Virus record (IMG/VR): IMGVR_UViG_3300003886_000004
Coordinates: 1-58,324 of that record
Length of the DNA stretch: 58,324 nucleotides
Direction: 5' to 3' (one strand)
From: a virus
Lineage: Duplodnaviria > Caudoviricetes
This document shows positions 5,175 through 28,380 of this stretch, in pieces; the stretch's first letter is position 1; each line of letters starts with the position of its first letter. The notes beneath the pieces were generated by a model. That model ran no database searches. It saw only the letters and a program-made list of their open reading frames with translations, and was not told the DNA's origin. Both the position numbers and the translations under genes were made by a program.

Positions 5175-5216
5175 TGTGATTTCCTTTTTGTGATTAAAAT
5201 GAAGTAGTTAAAGTTC

Positions 5217-10863: not shown

Positions 10864-12402
10864 TTAACTCGCTGTTGCAATGAATTCAGTGATTGGATGT
10901 TGTAATCCGTAAACACCTAATACAAAACTATCAGCTTCATCAGGAGAACAACCAATCATTCCTTGGATTGTTTCACCTTTGTAATTGTCTGAGGGCTTTG
11001 ACTTAGGCGGTAAGTATATTCTACCTTCTTGATCGTATAACAAAGGCATAACAGCTAATTGCCTTCTTAACTCTCTAAGATTGGGGGATATTCCGAATAC
11101 AGTATCCCCTTGTTCCTCTCTTGAAGGGTTGAATAACAAAGAGGCTTTGTGGTACATTTCAGCACGTAGGTTCACATAGGCACTAGAAAAGTCACCTTCA
11201 TCCTCAGGAGGGGTCGGAGACGATGCAAAGGATACGTTTCTTACTTCATACCCTTGTCGTCTAAGAATGTCTGCATGTTGCTTACCTCCTCCCCCACTAT
11301 CAAATACAGTATTCAAATGTGAGATACCGTGTTGATTCATAAGTGCAATAGTCTTATTGGGAATCACTGAAGTGTCTGTTGTTGATTCGGTGTATTGAGC
11401 AATGATCCCTTTTGTATCTACTACAGTCCAAACAGTATTGTCCCCTCCTTCAGCGGTATCGATACCTAAAGCTTTTCCTTTCCTAACAAACTTTTTATTC
11501 TTTCTTTTGATTTTCAGTAAAGCTCTGATTATCTCTCTATGTGCTTCCTCCCCTTTGTTTAACCAGTCTGGAGGAAACAATAAGACCTCGACTCCAGTAT
11601 AGAACTCTGCGTCTAACCCAATACATTGCCTTACAGGATCCCACAACTTTCTACGTTTCATATACTCGTTGTAAGTCAGCACTCCATCAATTATATTTTT
11701 CCCTGTAGGTTTCTTCCCTTTACCTATTTGTGATTCAGCGAATCTAACGTTAGGGGAATCAGAACCTTTTATCTGGATCACTTTAGTATGTAACCCGTTA
11801 CCTATTTCCTTTTTTATGTCCCCGTCTTTTGAAGATCGAAAAAAGAAGTTACTACAAGGCAGAGGGTTTCCAATGATTAGTTTTCTATGTGCCCAAGTTT
11901 CTACTGCATCGTTGAATTCATCATTGATCCCACTCGCTTCATCAAACAGGGCTAAAGTTCTAGGTTCTTCGTTTGGTCCTTCAGCTAAGTGATGACCTTG
12001 CAAGTTCTCAGGAGCGTTTGTAACTATTCCCCTTACGTAGGATTTAGGATCAAGGATACCTGGAGAGGTTTCTTTTCTTAACAGTAAGTCATTAACAGTG
12101 AATGGAAAAGGGTACAGTGAAGTCATTAAAAAGTTAGACATTTCTCCCCAAAGAACTGATCTCAATTGTGATTGACCTGCACTTGAAGTGATAATCCTAC
12201 ACGGAGTTCGACTAGCAAAGAACCATATAACTGCAAGAGCGGCAATAAAGTCCTTACCTAATTTGTTTCCAGCATACACTACTGTCTCATCATTGTCTCT
12301 AAGTGAGTACAGAATATCAACTTGTTTATCATACAGAAGTATTTGAGGCCAACAAAAGGATACAAATTTCATCGGATCTTTCAACAGTGATAACTCATCC
12401 AT
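10864..12402 (-). CDS. terL: Terminase large subunit
   Basis: Walker A AGNKLGKD, Walker B LFDEASG, RNase-H-like nuclease motifs GIDTAEGGD and SPDEADS. Confidence 0.92.
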   Translation of the reverse strand: MDELSLLKDPMKFVSFCWPQILLYDKQVDILYSLRDNDETVVYAGNKLGKDFIAALAVIWFFASRTPCRIITSSAGQSQLRSVLWGEMSNFLMTSLYPFPFTVNDLLLRKETSPGILDPKSYVRGIVTNAPENLQGHHLAEGPNEEPRTLALFDEASGINDEFNDAVETWAHRKLIIGNPLPCSNFFFRSSKDGDIKKEIGNGLHTKVIQIKGSDSPNVRFAESQIGKGKKPTGKNIIDGVLTYNEYMKRRKLWDPVRQCIGLDAEFYTGVEVLLFPPDWLNKGEEAHREIIRALLKIKRKNKKFVRKGKALGIDTAEGGDNTVWTVVDTKGIIAQYTESTTDTSVIPNKTIALMNQHGISHLNTVFDSGGGGKQHADILRRQGYEVRNVSFASSPTPPEDEGDFSSAYVNLRAEMYHKASLLFNPSREEQGDTVFGISPNLRELRRQLAVMPLLYDQEGRIYLPPKSKPSDNYKGETIQGMIGCSPDEADSFVLGVYGLQHPITEFIATAS

Positions 12403-12715
12403 AATTTTTCACTTTTAGTTTTATAATCTTTGCAGGTTTTTTACACGCTCTTAATTCATCCAGCATACCAGTTAAGTTAATATGGTAGTCTTGATCTGAT
12501 CCTTCAGTTAATTGAACCAAAGAACATCTAACTCTGAGATGAAAAACTACTAACTTTGATATTTCTTTTTTCAGATGAATCAGAAAAGTTTTAGTCTCTA
12601 AATCAACGTAAACTGTACTTGATTCATCTGGATAAATGAGAAGATTTGAGATACACTTGTTCAGGGTTGCTTGGATTGAATACATGTTTTGTCGTAGTTT
12701 ATCCAGATCACTCAT
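12395..12715 (-). CDS. Hypothetical protein
   Basis: Coupled ORF in the operon. Confidence 0.55.
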   Translation of the reverse strand: MSDLDKLRQNMYSIQATLNKCISNLLIYPDESSTVYVDLETKTFLIHLKKEISKLVVFHLRVRCSLVQLTEGSDQDYHINLTGMLDELRACKKPAKIIKLKVKNYG

Positions 12716-13002
12716 TAAATTTCTTTATCCTCTAATTCAGTAAGATCTAAAATATCTTGTTTCATCTTTCTCAAAACACGTAACTCTTTTTTAACTGTTA
12801 ATTGGAGTAACAGTAATTTTATAAAGTTGTATTTTGAGACTCTAACTACTGACCAAATATACCCCTCAGTAATTGATCCATCAGAGATGGAGATAAACAC
12901 TTCCACTTTACTGGTTTCTTGATTCAATCTATAATAGACTGATTCTCCATCCTCTAAGTTATATGTTGACCTGTGTGAAGATTTTTTAATCAAAGGAATC
13001 AT
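12715..13002 (-). CDS. Hypothetical protein
   Basis: Coupled ORF in the operon. Confidence 0.55.
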   Translation of the reverse strand: MIPLIKKSSHRSTYNLEDGESVYYRLNQETSKVEVFISISDGSITEGYIWSVVRVSKYNFIKLLLLQLTVKKELRVLRKMKQDILDLTELEDKEI

Positions 13003-13012
13003 ATTCAGTTCT

Positions 13013-13612
13013 CTAGGCTAGGGATTCGATTGTTTTTGTGTCGAGAATTTTTGCTTGTACATCCTGTGCTTTTTCCATTAAAACCTGCAACAACTTACTT
13101 GCAGCTAATCTAGCTTCCTCTTCTTTACTTTCAGGATTTGCGTCTACGTCTAATCCAACATGACGATACAAAAGTTGTAGTGCTGAAAACTTATCCCAAA
13201 AATCTATGTGTGTTGTTGTGTTTCCGTGTGTATCAGTAGTTACTGAAATGTTTCTAATTGATGCTGCTACGTTATCAGGAAGATCAACAATATCTAGCAT
13301 CATTCCTGTTTCGGGATCGAGAAGGTTTTTTGGATTTTGAAGAGCGAGGGCTGTTATCTCTTCTAAGACTCTTTCAGCAGTTAGTTCAAACTTTTGTGCC
13401 CTCTTGTATAGAGCGTGTCCTATGGCCTTACTTATGTTTGGGTGAGCTAATAGCTTTGGTCCCATGTTCTTAGCGTAACCAGCACACTCAGCGGCCTTAG
13501 AGGCGTTCATTTCATTTTGGGCTAGGTAAGCATGAACGAACAACCACTGTTTGTCATTCAGCTTATTTTTGGTGATACCTCTTTTCTTTGGTTTGATTAG
13601 GGAACTACTCAT
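13013..13612 (-). CDS. terS: Terminase small subunit
   Basis: LNDKQWLFVHAYL...NASKAAECAGY...LTAERVLEEI...DKFSALQLL. Confidence 0.9.
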   Translation of the reverse strand: MSSSLIKPKKRGITKNKLNDKQWLFVHAYLAQNEMNASKAAECAGYAKNMGPKLLAHPNISKAIGHALYKRAQKFELTAERVLEEITALALQNPKNLLDPETGMMLDIVDLPDNVAASIRNISVTTDTHGNTTTHIDFWDKFSALQLLYRHVGLDVDANPESKEEEARLAASKLLQVLMEKAQDVQAKILDTKTIESLA

Positions 13613-13983
13613 CCTGTTATCCTATCCTGATTATCTTGATTGAAGGTTTTGTTTTTACATTCAGCATTGTAGTCAGTAAATGTGGGAATAAAGAACCTCC
13701 AATGCTCTAACTGTTGTATGTCTCGAAAAGAGTTACCACTGTGTACGATGTGCATGTGACAGTTCATACATAAACAGATTCCATTTTTTAAGTCATAAGC
13801 AAGTTCAGGAAACTTACTCTTGGGAAATATGTGGTGTGCCTGTATTCGCCAAGAAGGGTGAGGAATACTACACATAGGACAGTAAGGGGATCTGATTGAT
13901 TTATCCCCTCTAACAATGAGAATTGAATCTCTGACTAACAGAAGTCTTCTCCATTTAGTTAACTTGTATCTGTTTAGTTTCAT
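13609..13983 (-). CDS. HNH endonuclease
   Basis: CPMC...AHHIFPK...NGICLCMNCH; adjacent to terS. Confidence 0.9.
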   Translation of the reverse strand: MKLNRYKLTKWRRLLLVRDSILIVRGDKSIRSPYCPMCSIPHPSWRIQAHHIFPKSKFPELAYDLKNGICLCMNCHMHIVHSGNSFRDIQQLEHWRFFIPTFTDYNAECKNKTFNQDNQDRITG

Positions 13984-14097
13984 CGTTTCTCCAAAATATA
14001 AAACAGGGGTAGTTGTGATGATCTCAACGTTTATCTACAGCTTGCAGCAATCTCAAGCTTACCCCAGATCCCACTACCAATAGGATAAGGTTGTGAA

Positions 14098-14301
14098 TCA
14101 TTTAGAGGCAGTCAACATATTGATGGGTTGACTTACTCCAATCATTCTGGTTTCTTTTCTAATTGTATTTTCGTAGCATTGATCACAAAACCAAAGGTTA
14201 ACAGGTCTACGTAAGTTGTGAAATGCCAGAGGGTAGTGGTACCCTTTATCAGTAGTACAAAAACACTCAGTACATACTAACTCTTGTTGTTCCTCTTCCA
14301 T
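14098..14301 (-). CDS. Small Zn-finger-like hypothetical protein
   Basis: CTEC...CDQC. Confidence 0.5.
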   Translation of the reverse strand: MEEEQQELVCTECFCTTDKGYHYPLAFHNLRRPVNLWFCDQCYENTIRKETRMIGVSQPINMLTASK

Positions 14302-14519
14302 TTTCTATTCCTTCCGTGTAACTCAGTAACAAACAAACGTGAATCCTCAGTTACCAGTTCCCATTGATAACCTAATAATTTTCTGTACCCTATTTTCAAT
14401 TGACAAAACCAGAGGTCTATTTCATCTAAGTAACCTTCTGAGGTTGAATCGAATTTTCTTTGATCAATTACAATTGTCTTCCCAGACGAGATAGAATGTT
14501 GCAGAACTTGATGATTCAT
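14277..14519 (-). CDS. Hypothetical protein
   Basis: ATGA-coupled to the upstream methyltransferase. Confidence 0.5.
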   Translation of the reverse strand: MNHQVLQHSISSGKTIVIDQRKFDSTSEGYLDEIDLWFCQLKIGYRKLLGYQWELVTEDSRLFVTELHGRNRKWKRNNKS

Positions 14520-15382
14520 TTGATTTCCCACAGGTAGTAAGTGTTTCCATCTTCATTATACTTGGTTTGATCAACCTCAGGAATCCTATGGTTGTAAGAC
14601 AGAATCTTTGTACCTACTTTCAACTTTTTCAGTTTAGGTATCACCTCAGCCATCACTTGTGGGTACAGGAACATTGTTACCATTGTAGCTCTTGAAAGAT
14701 CCTGATACTTAATGTCCCCAGTAATCACAAATACCTTCTTAGGGCTTTCAGCTTTAACTCTTGCTCTAGCTTTATCAGCAGTGATTGGGTTAATCTCAAT
14801 TCCTATTCCACGACAGCCGTACTTAGATGCAGCAGTGATTAGTATCCTACCGTCACCACATCCTAGATCATACAGATAATCCTTAGAAGTAGGATTCAGT
14901 ATTCTTAACATCGTATCAACAGCCTTCTGAGGGGAAGGATCTAATTGATTCAAAACGTTGTCTGGGATTATTTGTTGTACGGGTACTGAATTATCAACCA
15001 CCAAATTAGACCGAATATGGTTGCCCATGACAGAGCGTCTAGTACGATCTTCAGGATTAGTGATGTCATTTGAGTAAACCTTTTGAGGTTGGGCTAGTTG
15101 TGGTAAGGGAACTCGATGATTAAGTACAGGACTAGACATATTAGGGACAACATGAAAAGATCTGTTAGGATTTGACTGAGGAAATCGTACATTAGGTATT
15201 CTCCTTTGTGGAGGCTGTGAATACATTGAACCAAATAAACGGTTACACATTGCACAGTTAAGGTTGTTGCAATATCGACCGTTACTGTTTTTGGTGTACC
15301 CTCTTCCGTTACGTCGAAGCCATTGAGCGTCTACTACAGAAGGAGTTAAAAGTAACCAGAAGGCTAGTAGTAAGTATCTCAT
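14516..15382 (-). CDS. SAM-dependent methyltransferase (FAM173/DOT1-like protein-lysine MTase type) with N-terminal signal peptide and Cys motif
   Basis: YDLGCGDGRILI, GIGIEI and DLSRATMVTMFL motifs; N-terminus MRYLLLAFWLLLTPSVVDA followed by YCNNLNCAMC. Confidence 0.8.
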   Translation of the reverse strand: MRYLLLAFWLLLTPSVVDAQWLRRNGRGYTKNSNGRYCNNLNCAMCNRLFGSMYSQPPQRRIPNVRFPQSNPNRSFHVVPNMSSPVLNHRVPLPQLAQPQKVYSNDITNPEDRTRRSVMGNHIRSNLVVDNSVPVQQIIPDNVLNQLDPSPQKAVDTMLRILNPTSKDYLYDLGCGDGRILITAASKYGCRGIGIEINPITADKARARVKAESPKKVFVITGDIKYQDLSRATMVTMFLYPQVMAEVIPKLKKLKVGTKILSYNHRIPEVDQTKYNEDGNTYYLWEIK

Positions 15383-15390
15383 CGTTTTTC

Positions 15391-16038
15391 CTATTTGTAA
15401 TGGGCTGACCAAAACCAGGCATCATTGACACCACGTACTCTAGCTCTAGCCACAAGTTGTGATTCAGGAAGTTCACCATACCAACAGTGATTGGGACGAT
15501 TGAAATCCCAAGAATATCCTGTCCCTGAGTATGTTGTTCCAGGTGCATTACCTAGAGGATGACCACCGTCTCGATGAAGGTGATAATCAGCACCTCTTTC
15601 AGCAATGATTGTTGCTTCACGTAAAGCATGTTGATAGGTGTCAGTCCCCTTACCTACAATGACAGTTAGAGTTTGAGAGGGTTGGGGGAGAATGTGGTAT
15701 TCTGTACCTTGTACTGATTGTAAATGTGGATGTTCTCTCTGTAGTGTTGGATCAATTTCTATGTTAGGTATTTCCTGCATCTCACAGTATTCAGGATTGT
15801 TTGGGTTTTCATGGAGAACCTCAGACACTTTATTTGTATCACCTAAAAACTTTACCCACAGTCTTCGTAGTTCTGGTGGAACGTAGATTGTTGGTTTTTC
15901 TTCTTTTGGCATCCAAGGATCAGATCGAGTTTGAGTCCAATGAACAGAAAAGATTTCCTTGCTTCGGGTAACCCAGACTTGATTGTTGTAATCGCCATCA
16001 TCCTTTGTCGCTTTTCTATCTGTTATCCAATCGCTCAT
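15391..16038 (-). CDS. Hypothetical protein, C-terminus weakly CAP/SCP-like
   Basis: His-containing C-terminal domain (HALREA...GGHPLG...SGTGYS...NHCW); fold call is tentative. Confidence 0.5.
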   Translation of the reverse strand: MSDWITDRKATKDDGDYNNQVWVTRSKEIFSVHWTQTRSDPWMPKEEKPTIYVPPELRRLWVKFLGDTNKVSEVLHENPNNPEYCEMQEIPNIEIDPTLQREHPHLQSVQGTEYHILPQPSQTLTVIVGKGTDTYQHALREATIIAERGADYHLHRDGGHPLGNAPGTTYSGTGYSWDFNRPNHCWYGELPESQLVARARVRGVNDAWFWSAHYK

Positions 16039-16245
16039 AATTGTTTTGTTTGGTAAAGGGGGTTCAGGTTGGGTTAGTGTGGGTCAGTCATTTGTTAGAT
16101 ATTCCAAAACAAAAACAGAAAGTATCAAACAAAAAATAATTGTGAACATTCTAGTTTCTCTGAGATACACTCCTTGACTAAAAGAAAGGGCATTTCACCC
16201 TTATGCTGTTATCCGCAGTAGTACGGGTTACTTGTGTGGTTTGTG

Positions 16246-16602
16246 TTAACCTCGACAGCCACCACCAATAAGACCCCAACGAGTGCTACGTCTGGTATTC
16301 CAACGATCACGACGTCGTTCAATGCGGTCCCTACGTCGATCGTAACGAGCGTTTCGAGGAGTCGAGTAAATTACCCCCGAAGTATAGGAACCCCCACTAG
16401 AACCGTTGCTAGGGGCCACGTAACCACCTTGGCTACCGTAAGACACTACCGAGAGAGTAGGGTCAACTTGAACAGTTGTCTCAGTGATCACGGATTGAAC
16501 CTTCGTACAATTTGTACACTCTGCTTGAACATACCCTGTAGTCATCACAACTACAAACAGTGCAGCAATACCAAAACAGAGCCAATTGAAACGTTTAGAC
16601 AT
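16246..16602 (-). CDS. Secreted low-complexity Gly/Ser/Arg-rich small protein
   Basis: Signal peptide ending VQA, CTNC motif, GS-rich middle, Arg-rich tail; GAGG RBS. Confidence 0.7.
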   Translation of the reverse strand: MSKRFNWLCFGIAALFVVVMTTGYVQAECTNCTKVQSVITETTVQVDPTLSVVSYGSQGGYVAPSNGSSGGSYTSGVIYSTPRNARYDRRRDRIERRRDRWNTRRSTRWGLIGGGCRG

Positions 16603-16653
16603 TTTCTTTTCCTCAGTTACAAGTAAGTTTCTCAGGTACTTCCTGAGATAACA

Positions 16654-16760
16654 TGAACAGGGCAGGACTCGAACCTACAGTACCTTTGAGCACATGCCAG
16701 AAGAGGTGACGACACACCGCTTAAGCGTCTAATGCCAATTGCCAGCCTCTTCACCTGTTC
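16654..16760 (-). ncRNA. tRNA-like RNA with atypical interior
   Basis: Acceptor stem GAACAGG/CCTGTTC and T-arm GTAGG-TTCGAGT-CCTGC; 107 nt; no canonical anticodon arm found. Confidence 0.6.
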
Positions 16761-16762
16761 AT

Positions 16763-16898
16763 TAAGCAAGGTAGAGATTTGCACTCTACAGCTTTAAGCC
16801 CCGAAGGAAAGAATCCCCTACACTTCACAATCTTGTTGCCAAGATAATCGTGTAGTTAACCCGGAGAACTTTGCGTTTACCTATTCCGCCACTTGCTT
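16763..16898 (-). ncRNA. tRNA-like RNA with a large structured insert replacing the anticodon arm
   Basis: Acceptor AAGCAAG/CTTGCTT; Leu-type D-arm TGGCGGAATAGGTAAACGC; T-arm GTAGAG-TGCAAAT-CTCTAC; insert has CTACAC/GTGTAG and ATCTTG-GCAA-CAAGAT stems. Confidence 0.7.
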
Positions 16899-17023
16899 AC
16901 TATCAGTCATCTAACGTCTTCTGAAATGATGGAACTAGCACTGATATACCAGAGATACCATTTTTTATCTTCCGTCTACGTTAGTGCCCTTGTATAGCCG
17001 AAGGGTATGCTTACTTTATGTAA

Positions 17024-17072
17024 AGACCAGGAAAGGAATTGAACCTTTACTCTCAGCCACCAGGACTGGTCT
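17024..17072 (-). ncRNA. Minimal tRNA-like element (acceptor stem plus T-arm only)
   Basis: AGACCAG/CTGGTCT stem and AAAGG-TTCAATT-CCTTT arm, with only about 16 nt between them. Confidence 0.4.
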
Positions 17073-17090
17073 ACAACACCAAGAAACGAA

Positions 17091-17582
17091 TCAACAATCA
17101 GCAGTTTGTAAAGCACCCACTACCTTACCTTCTACTGATTCTTCACCGTTCTGGTATAACCAACTAGACTGAACCTTTTTCTTTGATGTAGGTTTACTGT
17201 ATTGAGACTTCTTTGTGTGTGCAGGTTTTGTACTTCTAGGGTACAGCAGTACGTTGGTTGCAAACCCGCAAAGAGTGATCACGTTCAAATGACTTGTGAT
17301 TTGAATATCTAACAGATCTTCAGAGAAATCTTCCTCTTCCAAAGTTTTCTCCCAATCACGTTGGGTCAGAGCTACCCCTTCATAGAATATTTTGTATACT
17401 AGGTGACCACGTCCAACCAGCATTTCTAGGAGAAACAGAGGGGCTACTTTGTTGCTTCCTTTCACGTGTCTAGGCTTCTGAGAACCCAGGGTTTTATCCC
17501 TGCATTCAAAGTACAATTCGTTGTGTTTTCTAATGATTCTGTATAACACAGTAATTTCCTCAGTAAAAACTAACCAAAACAT
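17091..17582 (-). CDS. Hypothetical protein
   Basis: Co-oriented ORF; start uncertain. Confidence 0.45.
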   Translation of the reverse strand: MFWLVFTEEITVLYRIIRKHNELYFECRDKTLGSQKPRHVKGSNKVAPLFLLEMLVGRGHLVYKIFYEGVALTQRDWEKTLEEEDFSEDLLDIQITSHLNVITLCGFATNVLLYPRSTKPAHTKKSQYSKPTSKKKVQSSWLYQNGEESVEGKVVGALQTADC

Positions 17583-17617
17583 TCAATATCTATCTCAAAG
17601 ACAATTCAAGATAAACA

Positions 17618-17866
17618 CTAATACCCGCAACGTTCATTATACACGGTACCCAGAGGATCAAAATTATCTACAAAATCGGATTCATAATCTTGTACCACAG
17701 TAAAGTAATCCCCAGTTGTTCTAAGTGTATCACTTGTCACCTCAGTTATCCATGTAGAGATAATTTTCAAACTTTTCAGGGAATCTAAAAACTCTCGTTC
17801 AGCCAACACTATTTTCAGATTAGTATCAGGAGTAACTAATTGAATCTGTAACCTAACTTTGTTCAT
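17618..17866 (-). CDS. Hypothetical protein
   Basis: ATGA-coupled to the PP-loop gene; GGAGG upstream. Confidence 0.55.
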   Translation of the reverse strand: MNKVRLQIQLVTPDTNLKIVLAEREFLDSLKSLKIISTWITEVTSDTLRTTGDYFTVVQDYESDFVDNFDPLGTVYNERCGY

Positions 17867-18678
17867 CCTCCAGGTCTCCCTAATTTCTTTTTGTTCAACA
17901 TAGGATCCCCAGATCTTTTAGCAGCATGAAGGAGTCTAAATTGATGACGAGCTAACTTAGCTTCAATCAGAGGAAAGAATAATTTTACCCGTTCATAATC
18001 CTGGGGGAAAAGTTCTTTCATTTTCAAGAGTGTGCCTACCAGAGGCAACCCTTCTAAACTTGTCTTGTCCAACAGGTAATCCAAACTCAATGAGATATCA
18101 AACCTAGATATGTATTCAGTTACTTGTGTGGGTTTCCAGTCCCAGATTGGGTAAAAGATTTGTTTGTCGTCTTCTTGACCGAGACAGCGATTCATTTGAG
18201 TAATACGATTGACATTGTCAAACATACAAATTCCCTTAGCCAACCACACAGTATCCTCAGCCATCCCCAATGCTTCACCATGTAGGTCAGCAACATTGTC
18301 AATCGTGTAGTCCCAAAAATCAAGAGCGTCCAGTAATTCAAGATCTTGAAAGGGTTGATAGATTCGATTAGCAAGATTGTATTGATTTTCCCCTTGCAGA
18401 TATCTGTGTATTGAGGTTTCAAACCATTGTTCATAATACGTCAACCCTTTATCAACATATTGAATACCTGGGATTGCAGAACAATGAAAAGGTCTTATTG
18501 TGTCAAACCCACAATCAAGAAGATATAGCCAACAGGCTAAAGAATCTTTACCTCCAGAAAAGGCTAGAAGAGTTACGCCACCTAAATACTCACAGAGAGA
18601 CTCGCAAGTTTTCTTAGACGCAACAGTACCAGAGAATAATCCATTCTCATCAGTTAGAGGTTTTGGAACGTGTTTCAT
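17863..18678 (-). CDS. PP-loop adenine nucleotide alpha-hydrolase (PAPS-reductase-like)
   Basis: LLAFSGGKDSLACW PP-loop and FYPIWDW motif; lacks the C-terminal ECG(L/I)H of CysH. Confidence 0.85.
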   Translation of the reverse strand: MKHVPKPLTDENGLFSGTVASKKTCESLCEYLGGVTLLAFSGGKDSLACWLYLLDCGFDTIRPFHCSAIPGIQYVDKGLTYYEQWFETSIHRYLQGENQYNLANRIYQPFQDLELLDALDFWDYTIDNVADLHGEALGMAEDTVWLAKGICMFDNVNRITQMNRCLGQEDDKQIFYPIWDWKPTQVTEYISRFDISLSLDYLLDKTSLEGLPLVGTLLKMKELFPQDYERVKLFFPLIEAKLARHQFRLLHAAKRSGDPMLNKKKLGRPGG

Positions 18679-18698
18679 TCATCAATTCCTGGTAGTGG

Positions 18699-18735
18699 AA
18701 AATAAAAGGGTATACAGCGGTTAAACTGTATACCC
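18699..18735 (-). terminator. Intrinsic terminator
   Basis: 10-bp stem GGGTATACAG/CTGTATACCC followed by TTTTATTTT on the minus strand. Confidence 0.8.
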
Positions 18736-18752
18736 CGTGTAAAAGAGTTAGA

Positions 18753-18872
18753 TCAACCAGAACCTTTTCCAGAAGATTTACCGCCTTTCTTCTTTGCTTT
18801 TCTTTTTGCTTTCTTAGCAGCTTTCTTTCTTGTTTTCTTCTTTGCTTTCTTAGCAGCTTTCTTCTTTGCCAC
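18753..18872 (-). CDS. 39-aa Lys/Ala-rich histone-H1-like peptide with Gly/Ser C-terminus (not in the ORF track)
   Basis: GTG start with GAGGTG RBS; MAKKKAAKKAKKKTRKKAAKKAKRKAKKKGGKSSGKGSG*; followed by a terminator. Confidence 0.8.
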   Translation of the reverse strand: MAKKKAAKKAKKKTRKKAAKKAKRKAKKKGGKSSGKGSG

Positions 18873-18921
18873 AATAACACCTCATGTTAATCGAGAAACA
18901 AACACAGTAAATTGATTTCAG

Positions 18922-19368
18922 TTAAAGTTGAACATCTACATCGTTAATCACCTCCCTATCAACCATATCAGCCAACTTCTGACTAAATCCTAGTTTGTGA
19001 GATGGTAACTCACAAGGGGTAACAGACAATCCAACCTTTTCCGCAAATCCTTCTCCATCGTAATAGTCACCGTAAGCATTTGCAATACCTTCGAGTTGTT
19101 CAGTGAATTCTAGCTTCTGAGAATAGGTTTGAAATACAACCACCACATAGTGATCTACTTCAATTTTATCGTTTTGCCTGTCAGCATCTACTTTCCTCTT
19201 GGCTCGAAGTCTTTCCTTTTCTAATTCTACCATACGTAGATTCTCGGCTAAAGCAACATCAGACAAGGTTATCTCACTTGCTTCAGGGATCTTGGGAATA
19301 CTTGCCCCCGTATGTGTTTTACGTGTTTTTGACTTAGGGCTAGAAGTTGTACTTTTCTTATTTGTCAC
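18922..19368 (-). CDS. Conserved phage protein resembling the C-terminal domain of ParB-like partners of PP-loop genes
   Basis: DHYVVVVFQTYSQKLEF...YYDGEGFAEKVG motif, recognised from memory. Confidence 0.55.
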   Translation of the reverse strand: MTNKKSTTSSPKSKTRKTHTGASIPKIPEASEITLSDVALAENLRMVELEKERLRAKRKVDADRQNDKIEVDHYVVVVFQTYSQKLEFTEQLEGIANAYGDYYDGEGFAEKVGLSVTPCELPSHKLGFSQKLADMVDREVINDVDVQL

Positions 19369-19404
19369 AGTAATCGTTCCTTTCTGTAAGTTAACTAAAT
19401 GGTA

Positions 19405-21582
19405 TCAGGTTTCGTATTCTTCCACGGATTGATAGAGGTTGTGTAGAGAATCTGAAAGAGTGTAGTATTTAACCTGAATCCTCCCACGTAGTATAGTTTT
19501 TGATTGAACTGCTTTCATTCCAACCAAGAAAGATATCAACATTTCAACCTCATTTATTGAATGGTTAGATCGTTTGGCTAATTCTTTTTCAGACAATCCC
19601 ACCTCAACATCAGATCGGTACAGAGTTCTCACTAGATCCAACGTAATCCCTTTGGCCGTATCTGAAGCTACTTTACTTGTACGTTGCATCACCTCTTGGG
19701 TTAATTTTGATTGATTCAATACAAGAGCAACAGACAGAGCCAGTTTTGTTATTTGCCCAGTTAGTCTTGGATTCATCTCTCGATCACCCCCACCCTTATC
19801 CTTTGGTCCCATACTAGGTCTAGCTCTAAGGTATGAAACAAACGTAGCAAAATCAATCAGTTTAGATTCTAGTCTTTTTGTTTCTCTTGGACGACGTTGT
19901 AAGTTTTTTTGTAAGGTTGTATATAGTTGATCTGAGTTATCACGTAAGTATTCTAAATACCCAGCAGTAGTCCCCATAGCTAAGACCATTTCAGGACTGT
20001 AATTTGAATTCATGTCCCCGTCTTTAGGTTTTCTGTGTATGTTTCCAATCACTCCTGATGCTTTTGTTTTTCCTATTTTACGTTCAATAGTATCGTCGAT
20101 ATCTTCCATGATCACACAATCTAAAAATCTCTCACCTAGTTCTGAACTATCAATTTCCCTAATTGTTTTAGTTCCTGCAATTATCCAAGTCATACGTTTC
20201 CCAGTATAGTTGTGGGCTTTGCCTGTTCTATATTGAGTACGTGATACCGTATCGTAAATATCTCTTGCTTCAGAAAATATCTGAGAACAGTGAGGGGATT
20301 TCATTAGTGTGTCAGCGTCTTTAGTGATTAACGTTTTACCACCAGCTTGTGCTATCAATGATCTATCTTCATCGTTACTACCCGAACCACTATGGAATCC
20401 AGTAATCACTGATCTAGCTAAAACGTATTTTGAAGAGACAGACAGAGCTTCACATAATGTACTCTTTCCTGATGAAGGAGGGGATATGATTTTTATCCAC
20501 AATTGATCATCTACTGTTTGTGTGCTAACACAACAGGCAAGCATAACACACAACGCTTGTTCAAGTCCGTCAGTCCATTCTAAAGCAAACCCCCAAACTT
20601 CTATCAGATCTTTCCAATTATCGCAATGAACGATTGGGATATCCGTACCATTGCTACGAAGCCCCCTAACCCGGTCTAACGTCCATTCTTGGGGTACGGG
20701 CGTAATCCGTCCTAGAATACGTGAAATCGCCTTAGATCGATTGTGAGACGTCCTTAGAGAAGAACCGCTAGGTAAGTGTAGTCCCCCTAAATAATCCCGC
20801 AAATCCATCTTGTGTGGAAGAGTCTTGTCATAACCTTCTGGACCCCACATCAAATAGCTGATAGATTTAGGAGAATCACCGAGAGTAGCTGAAATTGTTT
20901 TTGTGTTTTCATATCCGGCTGAAGGTTTTGTTTTCTTAGTCCCTTTTACTCTTTTCGGATGATCATTGTCGAACAAGATGGCAATATCACGATTAGCAAA
21001 CAAGGTCAACCAATCGTCAAAAAATACACTACACCCAGGAAGAGAGATTATGGAACCTTCAACTACTTCATCTAAAGCTACACCGTCCCAAAATCCTTCA
21101 GTGATAAAAATGGTATCATTTTCGTTAATCATTTGCAAACCTTGCAAATAATGTCCGATCCCTGGAGTAGGGAATAATTTATCCCCCCACAAATATAGAG
21201 TTTTCAATTCACCTTGAACATTGTATCCAGGGATTAACCAATTTCCAGTGATCATTGATTTAGCAGGTGCCCATTTTTTTAACGTCAAATGAGATCTGTA
21301 ACCTCTTTGACGTGCAAGAGATTTATAATCACGATCAGTTGTTTCTTGTAAACTCTCACTGTAAAGGAGTTTTACAAATTGAGAAGCATTTCCTGTTTCG
21401 GTACAAACAAAACAACGGTACTTTCCAGTTGATATTTGAATAGAGAATTTTCTTTCTCGATTACAAAATGGACATTCTCCTGTTGCATCTTTTGATCTTT
21501 CACTGTAGGTTAAATCTATACCGTGAATCAAGTAAGGCCTTAAAAATTCAGGCTCGTTTACAGTTGTCTTAACTCTCATCAA
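19405..21582 (-). CDS. Primase-helicase fusion (Zn finger, TOPRIM, AAA+/MCM-like ATPase)
   Basis: CPFC...CFVC; ITEGFWD and LFDND; SPPSSGKST; ELGERF. Confidence 0.85.
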   Translation of the reverse strand: MMRVKTTVNEPEFLRPYLIHGIDLTYSERSKDATGECPFCNRERKFSIQISTGKYRCFVCTETGNASQFVKLLYSESLQETTDRDYKSLARQRGYRSHLTLKKWAPAKSMITGNWLIPGYNVQGELKTLYLWGDKLFPTPGIGHYLQGLQMINENDTIFITEGFWDGVALDEVVEGSIISLPGCSVFFDDWLTLFANRDIAILFDNDHPKRVKGTKKTKPSAGYENTKTISATLGDSPKSISYLMWGPEGYDKTLPHKMDLRDYLGGLHLPSGSSLRTSHNRSKAISRILGRITPVPQEWTLDRVRGLRSNGTDIPIVHCDNWKDLIEVWGFALEWTDGLEQALCVMLACCVSTQTVDDQLWIKIISPPSSGKSTLCEALSVSSKYVLARSVITGFHSGSGSNDEDRSLIAQAGGKTLITKDADTLMKSPHCSQIFSEARDIYDTVSRTQYRTGKAHNYTGKRMTWIIAGTKTIREIDSSELGERFLDCVIMEDIDDTIERKIGKTKASGVIGNIHRKPKDGDMNSNYSPEMVLAMGTTAGYLEYLRDNSDQLYTTLQKNLQRRPRETKRLESKLIDFATFVSYLRARPSMGPKDKGGGDREMNPRLTGQITKLALSVALVLNQSKLTQEVMQRTSKVASDTAKGITLDLVRTLYRSDVEVGLSEKELAKRSNHSINEVEMLISFLVGMKAVQSKTILRGRIQVKYYTLSDSLHNLYQSVEEYET
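20650..20765. repeat. Helically phased element, copy 2 (in the primase-helicase linker)
   Basis: 20675-20689 tctaacgtccattct is the exact reverse complement of 43093-43107. Confidence 0.55.
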
Positions 21583-21643
21583 TAATCTAACAGTCTTTCA
21601 AGAATGTTGCTTTGTAAGGTTACACACTTCAACGTTGGTAATA

Positions 21644-22201
21644 TCAATCTTCATTCATTGCATCAGCTTCAGATTGTCGATCTCTATTTGATTCGTCTTC
21701 TTGTGTGAATTTGTGAGGGTATCTAATTTTCAACTTATCAATGTTGCACGTTAATACATCACTGACAGAAAAACCATTTAGATTACAAAGATCACCGAGA
21801 CTATGGTAGATTCTGATTAAAGAACCTACAATTTCCTTATCAGTAAATTCTTTATCGTGCCCATAATAATATCTTTTTTCAATGAGAGAAGAGAATAAAG
21901 AAATCTCTTTAATCAATCTAAAGCTCGGGTCTCCTGGTTGATACGTCCTAAGTATCGACCCTCGAAAATTCATTGCATTCATTGCTTCAGCAACATACCA
22001 AAACATATCACCTAATTCCTCTTTTTTATTTGTAACAGAAGTAGCACTTTGTAATTCAAATAAATCACCCTGCATCCCAATACAAGCATGTAACAACCTT
22101 ACCCCTCTGAATGGAAAATCAACATCTGTTATTCTCGATAATGAATCTACTTGGTTACATTCAGTACGTTGAACCAAAAATTGGTATTCTAAATGATTCA
22201 T
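21644..22201 (-). CDS. MazG-like dNTP pyrophosphohydrolase
   Basis: RLLHACIGM, KEELGDMFWY and NIDKLKIRYP motifs; start moved to MNHLEY. Confidence 0.85.
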   Translation of the reverse strand: MNHLEYQFLVQRTECNQVDSLSRITDVDFPFRGVRLLHACIGMQGDLFELQSATSVTNKKEELGDMFWYVAEAMNAMNFRGSILRTYQPGDPSFRLIKEISLFSSLIEKRYYYGHDKEFTDKEIVGSLIRIYHSLGDLCNLNGFSVSDVLTCNIDKLKIRYPHKFTQEDESNRDRQSEADAMNED

Positions 22202-22202
22202 C

Positions 22203-22391
22203 TTAATTCTTTCTTTGTACAGGACATAGATCAGGGTTAGGTAGTAAAGCGATAACTGGAATGATCGAGTACAATTTTGGTCCTGCACTACTAACCATGA
22301 TTCTGGAAATCACTACATTTTGTCCGATTGAATACGAACTATTTTCTATTGCTTCTTCTGGTGTATCAGCTTCAACTAATTCATAAATCAT
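22203..22391 (-). CDS. Hypothetical protein
   Basis: GAGG RBS; VEADTPEEAIE motif. Confidence 0.5.
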   Translation of the reverse strand: MIYELVEADTPEEAIENSSYSIGQNVVISRIMVSSAGPKLYSIIPVIALLPNPDLCPVQRKN

Positions 22392-22445
22392 AACTACCTC
22401 TTTGGTAACATTGAAAATGGTAACGTGTAAAAATGGTATCTGTAT

Positions 22446-23009
22446 CTAGTACATTCTAACCTCCCAGAATACTGTATTGAAATTTGGTAAAGTTCCCCAG
22501 TAACTCGAATAGGTTGAAAATTCAATTACATGATCTGGATAACGATCTAACAATTCACGTAACCAATCTTGTGAATTCGGACACAGGTAGGTATCTAACA
22601 AACACCTTGCAAAGATACCATGAACATAGTTAGACTGTTTTGCTAAAGCATCCCGCATAGGTAGAGCAATCGAACTATACGTAACCAACAATCCTTTAGA
22701 AGACAAAGCAACCTCACCTTGAATGAGTGTATCTTTTGTCGGAGCCATTTCTGAAACATAAAAAGTCTCTAGTGATTCTTCTGAATATCTAAGCCTGATC
22801 GATTCAAATGTTTGATTGTAATGAGTATCCCCACCAATTATTTTGTTTCTCAGATGAAATAAAGATTTTGAAGGTGGGAATTCAAATTTGAAATCATCTA
22901 AAAATACAGAAACAGATTCCCAAGTAGGTCCAGCATTCCCAAATTCACCTAGATTGTACCTACGAACAAAATCCAATTTAGTGGTTACTGGCGGAAAAGA
23001 TTCATTCAT
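22446..23009 (-). CDS. Putative ATP-grasp-like protein
   Basis: Motif order FHLR...YVSEM...IQGEV...VIEFS...VFWEVRMY resembles ATP-grasp/PPDK-N folds; coupled to the hydroxymethylase. Confidence 0.45.
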   Translation of the reverse strand: MNESFPPVTTKLDFVRRYNLGEFGNAGPTWESVSVFLDDFKFEFPPSKSLFHLRNKIIGGDTHYNQTFESIRLRYSEESLETFYVSEMAPTKDTLIQGEVALSSKGLLVTYSSIALPMRDALAKQSNYVHGIFARCLLDTYLCPNSQDWLRELLDRYPDHVIEFSTYSSYWGTLPNFNTVFWEVRMY

Positions 23010-24126
23010 CAGTATATCCTGTTTGTTTACGTTCGTGGGATAATCTTCTTTTTTCCATCCAGGTTACCCCTACATATTTCAGATCACACCAATCAGGTAA
23101 TTTATACAAGTGCTCAAAAGCTGTTGGGAATACTTTTCTTTTGTAAGCGAGATAAGCTAAACACATTGGAGCAGCTACCTCACGTAAAAATTTTGAATCC
23201 CAATTTTGGTGCATTCTCCAATGATCTGTATTTACAAACCTTGTACATTCATCAAGAAAACTTAGATAGCTTGAATTTACACAGATTGGGCGTAAATAAA
23301 TTCCTGTTTTATCAGAAATATAAAGATCTCTACTTGGATCTGAATATATTTTAGTCGGTGTTAAGTATTCTAACCCTTTATCTTTTTCTGTGTAGATATG
23401 TAGATTGTTAGTTATCTGGTGATAAACACCTAAATCAACTTTCAACATATCAGCTATAAATTCCTGGAGAAAAGAAAAATGGAATACATTGGCTCCCAGC
23501 ATCCCCCAGATTAGGTCATTGCTCCTATTGAATACAGTCATGTTCAATTTGTTGTCTAGGATTTCAAACACTGCACTTAGGTTACAAGGTATGTCTTTTC
23601 CTCCTCGGTATCCGGTTTCCAGATCATTAAACCCGTATTCGTTTCTTTCTTCTTGTTGTTCATCTGTTAACTTACCAAATTCTTCAATCGAATGACGGTT
23701 TGAACTATCCCACATTTGTAATACTGCTCTTCGATCATTTTTATTTTCACGTAAAACATCTACAATTCCTGAGATCTGGTCAAACCCTAAACCAGTCCTC
23801 CAACGATGGCCATAAGCCCCGTGAAAAGTTTTTCCATCGTCACTGTAATTCTGGATATTACTATTGTAGTAGCTTAATGCTCTTACATCGTTACTACCTG
23901 CCAACATCCAAAGAGACTCAAAGAGGTGAAAGAAAGGATTACAGTCTCGAATAGGATTAAACAGTACTCTCTCTCTAGGTTTTTCAAACGTAACGATCAC
24001 TGGACCATTAACACGTATAACAGAACCATTCCTAGAATCACTTTTTGTTGTTGGAATATCCCCGTCAGCAATCCTTTGGATTAGACCGTTGAAAGCTTGA
24101 TTGACATTTCTGTAGGTTAAGTGCAT
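23002..24126 (-). CDS. dUMP hydroxymethylase (thymidylate synthase superfamily)
   Basis: NPFFHLFESLWMLAG, DIPCN, NRSNDLIWGMLGAN (Asn at the dUMP-specificity position) and NLHIY; clustered with 5-hmU kinase and transferase genes. Confidence 0.88.
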   Translation of the reverse strand: MHLTYRNVNQAFNGLIQRIADGDIPTTKSDSRNGSVIRVNGPVIVTFEKPRERVLFNPIRDCNPFFHLFESLWMLAGSNDVRALSYYNSNIQNYSDDGKTFHGAYGHRWRTGLGFDQISGIVDVLRENKNDRRAVLQMWDSSNRHSIEEFGKLTDEQQEERNEYGFNDLETGYRGGKDIPCNLSAVFEILDNKLNMTVFNRSNDLIWGMLGANVFHFSFLQEFIADMLKVDLGVYHQITNNLHIYTEKDKGLEYLTPTKIYSDPSRDLYISDKTGIYLRPICVNSSYLSFLDECTRFVNTDHWRMHQNWDSKFLREVAAPMCLAYLAYKRKVFPTAFEHLYKLPDWCDLKYVGVTWMEKRRLSHERKQTGYTDE

Positions 24127-24127
24127 C

Positions 24128-24715
24128 TTAATTTTCCTTGACGATTTCAGTTAATTCTTGTTTCAGTATTTCAAAAGATTTTGATGCTAATTCATATCTG
24201 TGATTTCCTTGGTGAGGGAGTAAAATACTTTTACCTGGTGATTGGGTTCCTAAAAACGCAGAAGTGTTAGAGATTGAATCATCGATCAACACCGTACCTG
24301 GCTTTGAAAACAAGTATTTATGTTCCGTGATTATCAATCGTCTAGTAAAGTCTGAATCAATGTTTCTTTTGTACCACTCTATTTTTCCTTGGAAACAATC
24401 AACAGTAGGAAAAGGTTTAGTCAGAATAAACCAGTCATGCCCTAACTCAGTTATTAAAGAAAGGATCTTATCACAATCAGGAAGAGGATTCAGATTACGC
24501 CAAAATCCATTTCCTAGATCATTGATAACAGATATCATTTCTTCTCTCGTATATCTATCATCTGTTCTCCCAAACAAACTATCTAAAGCCTCAACAATAC
24601 TCCAGGTTCCTAGGGATCTAAATGTTTCCAAAGTTTTTCGGTTGATACCATAAAGATCACAAACCCCCCCGGTAAAATCACAAATCACCTCGTCCATATC
24701 CACATAGATAATCAT
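24128..24715 (-). CDS. HAD 5'(3')-deoxyribonucleotidase (NT5C-like)
   Basis: YVDMDEVICDF, ILTKP and VLIDD motifs. Confidence 0.88.
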   Translation of the reverse strand: MIIYVDMDEVICDFTGGVCDLYGINRKTLETFRSLGTWSIVEALDSLFGRTDDRYTREEMISVINDLGNGFWRNLNPLPDCDKILSLITELGHDWFILTKPFPTVDCFQGKIEWYKRNIDSDFTRRLIITEHKYLFSKPGTVLIDDSISNTSAFLGTQSPGKSILLPHQGNHRYELASKSFEILKQELTEIVKEN

Positions 24716-24812
24716 TACACTCTCTCCTTTTACGAACAATTTTAGGGTATCGGTTGGAAGTTGTATTTGTTAGAATACCTCACCTCTCAAATTATACCCA
24801 CTGGAAAAACAA

Positions 24813-25130
24813 ATGAAATTGAGAAAACCGCAACATCGAATCCTACAGTTTATGGTTCGCCATTATCAGGTAACAAGAAAACAGATATCGACCAACGCAA
24901 AAGTTGATTATGCAATGTTGACAGAATATCTTGGGGGTCAGGATAAAGAGAAAAGATTGTCGGTTGCCAAAAAGATTGGATTTGAATCATTGATTGATCT
25001 TGATCTAATAGTTGCTGAAAGATTAGAAATTAAAAATCGTTATGTTGTCCATTACAGTTTGTCTAAGTCTGGGAAAGATCTAGCAACTTCCCTTTTCGAC
25101 AAGCAGACAACAAATGTTGAGCAGTCTTAG
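24813..25130 (+). CDS. Winged-helix (MarR-like) protein on the opposite strand
   Basis: LRKPQHRILQFM...TRKQIS...SLIDLDLI...YSLSKSGKDLA; fills a gap with no minus-strand ORF. Confidence 0.6.
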   Translation: MKLRKPQHRILQFMVRHYQVTRKQISTNAKVDYAMLTEYLGGQDKEKRLSVAKKIGFESLIDLDLIVAERLEIKNRYVVHYSLSKSGKDLATSLFDKQTTNVEQS

Positions 25131-25860
25131 ACGTTTTGAATCTTTTGAGACTTTTGTACAGTTTGTTTGTGTCATCACCAATTTGATATCTCTCGTTCAA
25201 ATGTGATTTCCATTTACATAAAACTGTTTCCACTTCTTGGACCCCCACCATTCTTTTGTATCCAGGGGGAGCATAGTAACGATTCAATTCTTCTGAGATT
25301 GTTTCAACTGCCCACTCACTCAACTCTACATTGTTATACACAGGAACGTCTAATTCTTCAGCTAGTCGTCTAGCCCCTTCTAAAGGTGAACTAAATAAGA
25401 ATACGTTCTCAACTGAAAATTCGATATTGACTATTTGTAAACACTCTAGCATATCTGCGATCTTGAATCCGATCCAAGGTCCAAACCCAACCCAACCTAC
25501 TACAGTATTCATAACCTGTTGATAAGTTAACCTATCATTTTCAATGAAAGGAGAAACCAATCTATCTAGTCCTACCGAGGTCAAGTAGTCGATTGAGTTA
25601 GTAGCTAGGTCACCCCGAAAGTGTCTACGTTCGACCCCACGGGGCACCCACGTTGTTTGTGCAGCCCTTTTCATGGTCTCCCAATACTTTGGAGAGTCTA
25701 CTATCCAACAAGCCGTACCAGAGTCGTAGAAACACCAATAAGCAAGCAACCAACGGTACAACTTGAACCCTTTCAAATTTGATTCAAACAGCATTACATA
25801 GATTGGATCTAAATCGTTTGAATCTAATAAATCTTTTCCAAATTCACCACAACTAGACAT
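25063..25860 (-). CDS. Amino acid:DNA transferase (aGPT-Pplase2)
   Basis: DLDPIY, WLLAYWCFYD, RGVERRHFRG, GFGPWIGFKIADM and QEVETVLCKWKSH motifs. Confidence 0.88.
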   Translation of the reverse strand: MSSCGEFGKDLLDSNDLDPIYVMLFESNLKGFKLYRWLLAYWCFYDSGTACWIVDSPKYWETMKRAAQTTWVPRGVERRHFRGDLATNSIDYLTSVGLDRLVSPFIENDRLTYQQVMNTVVGWVGFGPWIGFKIADMLECLQIVNIEFSVENVFLFSSPLEGARRLAEELDVPVYNNVELSEWAVETISEELNRYYAPPGYKRMVGVQEVETVLCKWKSHLNERYQIGDDTNKLYKSLKRFKTSKTAQHLLSACRKGKLLDLSQT

Positions 25861-28154: not shown

Positions 28155-28380
28155 CAGTAGTCTCCAATCCTTGTGCGTACTTCACATGGTGGGGATAATT
28201 TTTACTCCACGATTGTTGAAGGAGCCAGAACCAATAAGTGTCAGGGATATCTTTTAACTTATAACCTTTGTAAGTTCCCCAGGTCATAATTGATTGATCA
28301 TGTAACAGAATAACGTTACTCTGTTTGATGGTTTCGTTTTGTTCAAGTAGTTTGTTTCGATTTAGATTACAGTGTGGCAT
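28144..28380 (-). CDS. DUF3820-like small protein
   Basis: MTWGTYKGYKLKDIPDTYWFWL motif. Confidence 0.65.
   Translation of the reverse strand: MPHCNLNRNKLLEQNETIKQSNVILLHDQSIMTWGTYKGYKLKDIPDTYWFWLLQQSWSKNYPHHVKYAQGLETTDVN

Follow-up and report, generated by a model that had tools for sequence, protein, structure and literature searches.

We describe a three-gene locus in a virus record of IMG/VR (IMGVR_UViG_3300003886_000004; Duplodnaviria, Caudoviricetes), and by "the window" we mean the whole of the 58,324 bases analysed. The record has an estimated completeness of 82% and about 39% G+C, no tRNA genes were found in its 58,324 bases, and nearly all genes of the window are carried by the minus strand. 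On this strand, a gene for a basic peptide of 39 amino acids (aa) lies between the gene of a small partner protein and that of an enzyme with an ATP-pyrophosphatase loop (PP-loop). The partner stop is separated from the peptide start by 49 nucleotides (nt), and the peptide end from the enzyme start by 74 nt (Table 1). This arrangement had been proposed from the sequence alone, in what we call the original prediction. All of the components are found on the minus strand at the positions it gave, with an identical peptide sequence. With the 39-aa open reading frame (ORF), a conserved phage module comprises three genes, and this triad of peptide, partner and enzyme is well supported.

Table 1. Features of the locus and of the adjoining region, in the order of transcription
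Feature	Position	Strand	Remarks
Thymidine-hypermodification set	23002-28154	-	thymidylate synthase-like, NT5C nucleotidase, amino acid:DNA transferase (PF18724), FAD-dependent oxidoreductase (DAO), 5-hydroxymethyldeoxyuridine (5-hmdU) DNA kinase parts
Primase-type protein	19405-21582	-	CHC2 zinc finger
Partner protein, 148 aa	18922-19368	-	GTG start
Shine-Dalgarno-like GAGGTG	18878-18883	-	5 nt ahead of the peptide GTG
39-aa peptide gene	18753-18872	-	GTG start
Intrinsic-terminator-like hairpin and T-run	18697-18736	-	between peptide and enzyme; 12-bp stem, 6-nt loop
PP-loop enzyme, 271 aa	17863-18678	-	SGGKDS at residues 41-46
82-aa ORF	17618-17866	-	ATG overlaps the enzyme stop (ATGA)

The peptide gene in the window

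The peptide is rich in lysine and alanine, has a net charge of +21 and ends in ...GGKSSGKGSG. The ribosome-binding site that the original prediction had seen is present in the form of GAGGTG, 5 nt before the GTG start, and it is similar to the GGA/GAGG-type sites ahead of many other genes of the window. Moreover, the alanine, serine and glycine codons of the peptide gene are the common ones of the genome. This site, the genome-typical codons and the equivalent ORFs found at fixed positions in distant homolog loci (see below) bear out the claim that the peptide is a real gene. It belongs to the class of peptides followed in this work, having a length of 20–100 aa, a charge of at least +4, an end rich in Gly, Ser, Thr or Ala (here GKGSG) and a place on the same strand next to the enzyme or the partner. 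A rival frame of 76 aa (18650-18880) was rejected; it passes through the terminator into the enzyme gene and no counterpart of it was found.

The peptide sequence is of low complexity and contains an internal direct repeat. When it was searched against a collection of 5.8 billion proteins, nothing was obtained at E ≤ 10 among 402 candidates, not even the peptide itself, and a low-complexity query of about 40 residues cannot reach significance there; the enzyme and the partner are present in the collection as called proteins. No match of the peptide to HC2 (PF07382) or to any other Pfam family was found at E ≤ 0.1.

The window phage is an orphan. There is no DNA match to it among 50,697 phage records, and single-protein scans of IMG/VR with the enzyme, with its closest homolog (P0002, 55% identical) and with the primase gave no close relatives. 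Therefore, distant homolog loci were used for comparison.

The enzyme and the partner protein

The residues S41, G43, K44 and D45 of the PP-loop are invariant in 11 enzyme sequences and invariant or near-invariant in 63. The original prediction had described a PP-loop enzyme lacking the catalytic cysteine motif of CysH, and indeed no ECGLH-type motif, which is the catalytic C-terminal cysteine motif of phosphoadenosine phosphosulfate (PAPS) and adenosine phosphosulfate (APS) reductases, occurs in its 271 aa. Furthermore, no cysteine is invariant or near-invariant among 63 aligned homologs. The enzyme matches 'PAPS reductase' families of PHROG, phrog_2302 at 9.8e-11; its score against PF01507 (16.7 bits, E 0.0077) lies under the cut-off of 22.5 bits, and neither the window enzyme nor the partner matched an NCBIfam family.

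The structure model of the enzyme has a predicted local distance difference test (pLDDT) value of 89.6. Its best match by VIA-align is the PAPS domain of human FAD synthase (Z 14.1, root-mean-square deviation 3.6, 175 residues aligned), with APS reductase (Z 13.3), CysD (Z 12.5) and yeast Fad1 (Z 12.3) behind it and TilS, LarE, NcsA and others next; many PP-loop enzymes match at Z values of 8–14. Foldseek gave the TtuA–TtuB complex first (E 1.6e-5); by VIA-align, TtuA has a Z of 10.1, less than FAD synthase, APS reductase and CysD (Z 12–14). These fold matches and the lack of a conserved cysteine place the protein among the nucleotide-binding PP-loop enzymes, in the PAPS reductase-like group; it is no PAPS reductase, and in its cysteines it does not resemble DndC. 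Apart from P0002, its homologs are at most 36% identical to it. Basic enzymes prevail in the family, whose median pI among 59 sequences is 9.0. The C-terminus of the window enzyme (17863-17890) is basic and ends in ...KKKLGRPGG; P0002 also has a basic C-terminal extension, and the other homologs end earlier.

The partner consists of a basic disordered N-terminus, a long helix (about residues 35–68) and a conserved C-terminal domain (DHYVVVVFQTYSQKLEFTEQL...GDYYDGEGFAEKVGL) with the motif D-x-x-[FY][WY]-x-x-V-x-F...QK..F...GDKY.DG..LA..LG. That it is a conserved gene, as had been claimed, was confirmed by hhalign against the partners translationally coupled to the enzymes of clade C (defined below), with a probability of 92.7% and an E of 4.1e-7 over 69 columns. 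A profile search for the domain returned 1,743 family representatives with E ≤ 1e-3, of which 1,145 reach E ≤ 1e-10; the window partner scores 127 bits in this search, being one of the eight sequences of the profile itself. Most of the family matches listed have 115–180 aa, and some are tandem duplicates. Neither the window partner nor the 10 family members scanned have a Pfam match, a word search with the window partner found itself only, and its Atlas neighbours are viral hypothetical proteins. The structure model, with a mean pLDDT of 69, presents the long helix and a small domain at medium confidence; in the fold search the best Z was 4.0 and every match fell on the long helix.

The ParB-like proteins encoded beside the enzyme in clades A and B carry this domain at their C-terminus, and hence it occurs either alone or fused to ParB-like (IbrB-like) proteins. 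The window partner holds the C-terminal domain only; the ParB part (GGHQR), which is present in the loci of clades A and B, is absent from it. Two tandem copies of the partner domain were seen in L150:3241-3936 (Gordonia phage Aleemily gp163) and in P0017, P0056, P0090 and P0133. The 82-aa ORF that overlaps the enzyme stop was considered as a second partner domain and was ruled out (hhalign 0.1%); it has no family match.

Recurrence of the three genes in distant phages

The homolog loci came from IMG/VR, metagenomes and cultured phages. The sample comprises 70 loci (given below by L numbers) with non-identical enzymes, in which the enzyme ORF is complete and preceded by at least 150 nt of sequence; 59 of them have an enzyme of at most 300 aa (210–270 aa in this family) that scores at least 80 bits, and the other 11 are distant, with enzymes mostly of about 350 aa. 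A scan of genome contigs gave only 2 weak loci, which are not part of this sample. A quick maximum-likelihood tree of the 59 enzymes separates three groups. Clade A (15 rows, L031-like) includes Bacteroides phage BS-TP2 and Riemerella phage RAP44, clade B (22 rows, L020-like) includes Lactobacillus phage LR1, and clade C (20 rows, support 100) includes the window together with Pasteurella phage Pm86, Bifidobacterium phage BigBern1 and Gordonia phage VanLee.

The loci of clades A and B usually begin with the peptide gene, followed by that of the enzyme. Next comes the ParB-like protein, sometimes after an intervening ORF of about 155 aa that has Cys-rich ends and matches no family, and in several loci the genes of the small and large terminase lie behind it. 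The peptides ahead of the enzyme end in ...RRKSxGGxGG*, ...GGGGG*, ...GTG* or similar, and their stop lies 0–5 nt, occasionally up to 64 nt, before the enzyme start. Shine-Dalgarno sites of the GGAGGTG/GGGGGTG type stand ahead of homologous peptides. The enzyme gene of clade C is translationally coupled to a downstream gene, which encodes a protein of 120–250 aa with the conserved partner motif, and directly after this second gene comes a peptide ending in ...RSSGS*, ...RTSGS* or ...SSSGS* (L004, which is Pm86, and L008, L027, L019, L024, L041, L042 and L046) or, as variants, in ...SSGT* or runs of Gly (L005, L006, L012). Gordonia phage Aleemily, with its gp164, also shows this placement after the partner and a tail of the RSSGS/RTSGS kind. 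The consensus of 16 aligned clade-C peptides is MR...RR.AA..(G/S)R(S/T)SGS. The tail of the window peptide, ...KRKAKKKGGKSSGKGSG, can be aligned with this consensus; Lys replaces Arg, as is expected for a genome of 39% G+C, and Lys/Ala-rich bodies like that of the window occur in L041 and L118.

Three gene orders are thus found, namely peptide-enzyme, enzyme-partner-peptide and the partner-peptide-enzyme of the window, which retains the partner-peptide adjacency of clade C. The type of tail tracks the enzyme clade: ...GGxGG* upstream of the enzyme in two clades, and ...R(S/T)SGS* after the partner in the clade of the window. Without exception, the peptides of the module join a basic body, which evolves very fast, to a short end of small residues at their extreme C-terminus. 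Some loci have two candidate peptide genes, in tandem or flanking the enzyme (L019:5058-5165 and 5184-5339, in tandem; L029:3786-3944 and 4623-4841; L119:2711-2839 and 2843-2968). The linkage of peptide, partner and PP-loop enzyme claimed at the outset for the window therefore holds well beyond it, as the three occur together in each of three deep clades of the enzyme and in phages whose hosts belong to the Actinobacteria, Firmicutes, Bacteroidetes and Proteobacteria.

These observations were quantified with two criteria. The strict one (20–100 aa, charge of at least +4, at least 3 Gly in the last 8 residues, stop between -12 and +110 nt of the enzyme start) selects 22 of the 70 loci, against 5 of 428 other ORFs of at least 150 aa in the same loci. 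The union criterion takes in the region that begins 260 nt ahead of the enzyme and ends 2,700 nt behind it, and at least one small basic ORF with a Gly/Ser-rich end is present there in 40 of 59 loci (9/15 in clade A, 19/22 in B, 12/20 in C and 0/2 among the unplaced); when these regions were block-shuffled 20 times, 12.6 loci on average, and never more than 18, had a match. Short basic ORFs with Gly/Ser C-termini are consequently found beside the homologs of the enzyme, where the original prediction had suggested looking for them. The density of matches is 0.368 per kb within the module, 0.121 on the same strand outside it and 0.054 on the opposite strand. No convincing peptide is present in the 11 distant PAPS-like loci. 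None of the 19 peptides scanned matched a Pfam or PHROG family; such peptides are annotated as hypothetical proteins in BS-TP2 (gp53) and Aleemily (gp164), and are unannotated in 3 of 5 cultured-phage records (Pm86, RAP44 and VanLee). These findings point to the small basic peptides with Gly/Ser tails as an overlooked class, and to the triad as an undescribed three-gene system.

The low complexity of the window peptide, its internal direct repeat and the lack of a homolog by sequence search could suggest a chance open frame in an A/G-rich spacer. We find this scarcely credible in view of the Shine-Dalgarno site, the terminator and the genome-typical codons, and of the ORFs equivalent in position and composition that recur in distant loci far above the controls, two of them annotated in the cultured phages just named.

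The hairpin after the peptide gene is as strong as had been claimed. It spans 18707-18736, with 12 pairs followed by TTTATTTT, its stem is the longest of the 11 terminator-like sites found within 12000-31000 (19 kb), and its folding energy is -18.6 kcal/mol (z = -3.7), which none of 200 shuffles equalled. As a general trait of the family, a precursor-hairpin-enzyme layout is not supported: a terminator-like site follows only 6 of 45 candidate peptide ORFs, and some of these sites fall within the enzyme gene. In clades A and B, the distance of 0–5 nt between peptide stop and enzyme start speaks against an attenuating hairpin between the genes. The hairpin is not conserved across homologs as it would be in an operon of the type known for ribosomally synthesized and post-translationally modified peptides. 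A terminator-like site likewise stands behind the peptide gene of L027 and that of L118, two loci in which the enzyme and the partner precede this gene. It is more likely that the hairpin of the window marks, much as in these two loci, the end of a primase-partner-peptide unit. We propose that the peptide gene closes this transcription unit, ahead of the terminator, and that the enzyme opens the next one.

Possible roles of the peptide and their meaning

According to the passages available from two papers, 'PAPS reductase' genes of phages are common 'auxiliary metabolic genes' (AMGs) that are usually read in terms of sulfur metabolism (PMC12323421, PMC11437467), and a third cites evidence that a phage copy of PAPS reductase helps to evade the Dnd defence of the host (PMC13551039). 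In the present family there is no conserved cysteine, the eleven partner proteins scanned lack a Pfam match and the 19 tail peptides scanned are unmatched in Pfam and PHROG; these features argue for a dedicated pathway that acts on or with the peptide rather than in sulfate assimilation. A small peptide partner is not mentioned in the main-text passages available from the literature on phage PAPS reductase, on IbrA/IbrB/ParB and on phage histone-like peptides.

We tentatively favour, with considerable doubt as to the chemistry, the reading that the peptide is a substrate of the enzyme, its tail being activated with ATP, the partner serving as an adaptor and DNA being the likely destination. 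The linkage itself is shown by the loci, and the following steps are inferred. Bound to nucleic acid through its polycationic body, the peptide would thread its flexible Gly/Ser tail into the nucleotide-binding pocket of the enzyme, where ATP would activate the terminal carboxylate of the tail to an acyl-adenylate (activation of a Ser or Thr of the tail is a less likely variant). With the partner domain as adaptor, the activated peptide would then be handed to a nucleophile, most plausibly on phage DNA. DNA is suggested as the destination because ParB-like DNA binders are fused to the partner domain, the enzymes are mostly basic and the module of clades A and B stands beside terminase genes.

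Several features make us prefer a substrate. Conservation is concentrated at the extreme C-terminus, and the tail type follows the enzyme clade; duplicate candidate genes exist in some loci, as is often the case for precursor genes, and the ribosome-binding sites are strong. The PP-loop fold is assigned with high confidence, and the top Foldseek match is TtuA with its carrier TtuB, whose Gly-Gly tail goes into the active site of TtuA. Besides, the 11 distant PAPS-like loci have no convincing peptide. In a co-fold of the enzyme, the partner, ATP and the peptide the score was 0.00, and the peptide, with its 39 low-complexity residues and GSG end, had a pLDDT below 50 in at least one run; this co-fold speaks neither for nor against the reading.

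Activation at a C-terminus is well known from E1 enzymes with ubiquitin-like proteins, from MccB with the microcin C precursor and from Pup ligation, which employ E1-like or glutamine synthetase-like folds. The resemblance lies in a small gene with a conserved flexible C-terminal tail next to an ATP-using enzyme; no E1-like or glutamine synthetase-like enzyme turned up in the parts of the module examined. A parallel in fold is offered by TtuA–TtuB and Ncs6–Urm1, where a PP-loop enzyme works with a small protein that ends in Gly-Gly; at the present locus, too, a small product with a flexible Gly-rich C-terminus is encoded near the enzyme. TtuB is, however, a folded ubiquitin-like sulfur carrier and TtuA has an Fe-S cluster, whereas the window peptide is a low-complexity polycation and the window enzyme lacks a conserved cysteine. 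The peptide might by this analogy carry sulfur or another group on a thiocarboxylated C-terminus, as TtuB, ThiS and MoaD do, and donate it to a substrate adenylated by the enzyme, and both the top rank of TtuA–TtuB in Foldseek and the GG ends of many clade A and B peptides fit such a role. We regard it as very unlikely, as the enzyme family has no conserved cysteine and hence no Fe-S site, the peptides are of low complexity without a known domain family, and the partner chain had a pLDDT below 50 in at least one co-fold run; moreover, no E1-like enzyme or cysteine desulfurase appeared among the neighbouring ORFs examined, although no dedicated search for them was made.

The pairing of enzyme and partner itself has precedents. 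IbrA/IbrB-type pairs combine, as the homolog loci do, a PAPS reductase-like PP-loop gene with a ParB-like gene, often by terminase genes, and the window partner has the C-terminal domain of their ParB-like proteins; it differs from these in lacking the ParB N-terminal domain. The window enzyme is at most a putative IbrA proper, for it has no NCBIfam match, and the distant PAPS-like group, mostly of about 350 aa, is without a peptide. In DndC/DndB, SspD and BrxP of BREX type 4, according to the passages available of PMC10853773 and PMC12839542, a PAPS reductase-like ATP pyrophosphatase is likewise combined with a protein of the ParB superfamily and acts on DNA; these same passages contain no peptide component. 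The window enzyme differs from DndC and SspD in lacking their Cys dyad and Fe-S features, and Pfam gave no DndA-, DndD- or DndE-like matches among the 28 window ORFs scanned.

In the main alternative, the peptide is an obligate subunit but not a substrate. It would serve as a DNA tether or as a regulator, with its tail docked on either the enzyme or the partner, while the enzyme acts on DNA or on a nucleotide. The co-occurrence data and the co-variation of tail type with enzyme clade would be the same in this case, ParB and PAPS reductase-like proteins are also paired in DndB/DndC (PMC10853773, in the passages available), and action of the enzyme on DNA has been proposed for DndC. Furthermore, in L044 (4028-4180) the place of the clade-C tail peptide is taken by a basic peptide of 50 aa ending in DDDIPF. 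This sequence is that of the C-terminal protein-docking tip of the bacterial single-stranded DNA-binding protein (SSB), of which the L044 peptide may be a mimic, and it hints that tails can be docking motifs. Three observations lead us to see a docking subunit as possible but somewhat less likely than a substrate: most enzymes are already basic and would have less need of an extra DNA tether, the duplicate genes and the very strong ribosome-binding sites suit a consumed substrate better, and the peptide body evolves very fast.

The Lys/Ala-rich composition, from which DNA binding is likely, also recalls the bacterial H1-like proteins Hc1 and Hc2 with their AKKA-repeat tails, and among the Atlas clusters assigned to a Pfam family the one closest to the peptide, at a weak 0.81, is HC2. 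The peptide could accordingly be an independent histone H1-like protein that condenses DNA or neutralises its charge, as a nucleoid component or a packaging counter-ion, and be close to the enzyme by synteny only. Other short Lys-rich peptide families do exist in viral contigs without a tblastn match (E ≤ 0.01) to the enzyme in the flanks examined (24 loci), and, as the pathway in the window is expected to add amines to thymidine, management of DNA charge would be plausible. We consider this quite improbable, however, because the adjacency is kept through three gene orders and hosts of four phyla, the tail type goes with the enzyme clade and the distant PAPS-like group lacks the peptide. The window peptide further differs from Hc1 and Hc2 in its length of 39 aa, the absence of a Pfam HC2 match, the conserved tail of small residues and the fixed linkage to enzyme and partner. 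A separate family of peptides of 27–37 aa was noticed in L058, L060, L066, L068, L069, L070 and L073, with the pattern M-P-x-V-x-G-K-K-Y-P-Y-T-x-x-G-K-K-A-A-K-K-A-K-K-K; no tblastn match to a PAPS-like enzyme was found at E ≤ 0.01 in its flanks examined.

Several points weigh against the peptide as an enzyme substrate and against the generality of the triad. Solved PAPS reductase-like enzymes transfer AMP to sulfate or phosphate and not to carboxylates, and the adenylation of a carboxylate is therefore borrowed from other PP-loop families. Within clade C, a long branch (2.65) leads to the window enzyme, which lacks, as P0002 does, the near-invariant Pro-His of alignment positions 94–95, and is acidic (net charge -7) in a family whose median is basic. 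The background of the shuffles is considerable (12.6 of 59 loci), since Arg/Gly-rich chance ORFs are common in GC-rich loci; we give more weight to the fixed positions, the Shine-Dalgarno sites and the shared motifs than to the raw count. Finally, 19 of the 59 loci lack a peptide of the class. Some of these are truncated (L010, L045, L048), and others have basic peptides with different tails, namely RAP44 (...KANGAI), VanLee (...RRRPT), BigBern1 (...GSIHR) and L044 (...DDDIPF); in LR1 there is none of the class, and its close relatives L093, L096, L099 and L105 have one.

Taking the substrate reading a step further, the module may be a phage peptide-ligation system, in which the enzyme, with the partner or the ParB-like protein as adaptor, would adenylate the tail of the polycationic peptide and attach the peptide covalently to phage DNA or to DNA ends at packaging, thereby shielding the genome from host nucleases. 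We consider this unlikely, and mention it for what it would imply.

The acceptor suggested by the original prediction was the amine of a modified thymidine. Upstream of the module, the window does carry a thymidine-hypermodification set, in which the kinase parts correspond to a weak PF18748 and a strong PF18723 match. Its transferase-oxidase pair recalls the route of PaMx11 gp46/gp47 to N-alpha-glycinylthymidine (N-alpha-GlyT) and 5-aminomethyldeoxyuridine (5-NmdU), as described in the abstract of PMC11472151. As a general acceptor this amine is not supported, for PF18723 is present in none of 5 complete phage genomes that carry the module, in a search that does find the one of the window. 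Elsewhere in the window, all on the minus strand, 14516-15412 encodes a protein with an S-adenosylmethionine-methyltransferase domain and a hydrophobic N-terminus, and the 118-aa protein of 16246-16602 is likewise hydrophobic at its N-terminus, its C-terminal part being rich in Arg and ending in ...GGGCRG. A (KR)n run at 32131-32211, in a short ORF overlapping the 380-aa ORF at 31787-32929, points to a simple repeat of the AAG/AGA type.

In our opinion, the wider lesson of this locus is that what a known gene pair lacks may be a gene of fewer than 50 codons, as an overlooked small gene here completes a widespread phage module. This module is present in cultured phages of harmless hosts, such as Lactobacillus reuteri phage LR1, Bacteroides phage BS-TP2 (gp53-55) and the Gordonia phages VanLee and Aleemily (gp162-164), which provide testable handles. 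If the peptide-ligation reading were true, annotations of the kind 'phage PAPS reductase, sulfur-metabolism AMG', which are widespread, would be mis-assigned, and phage genomes would bear a peptide-type DNA modification.

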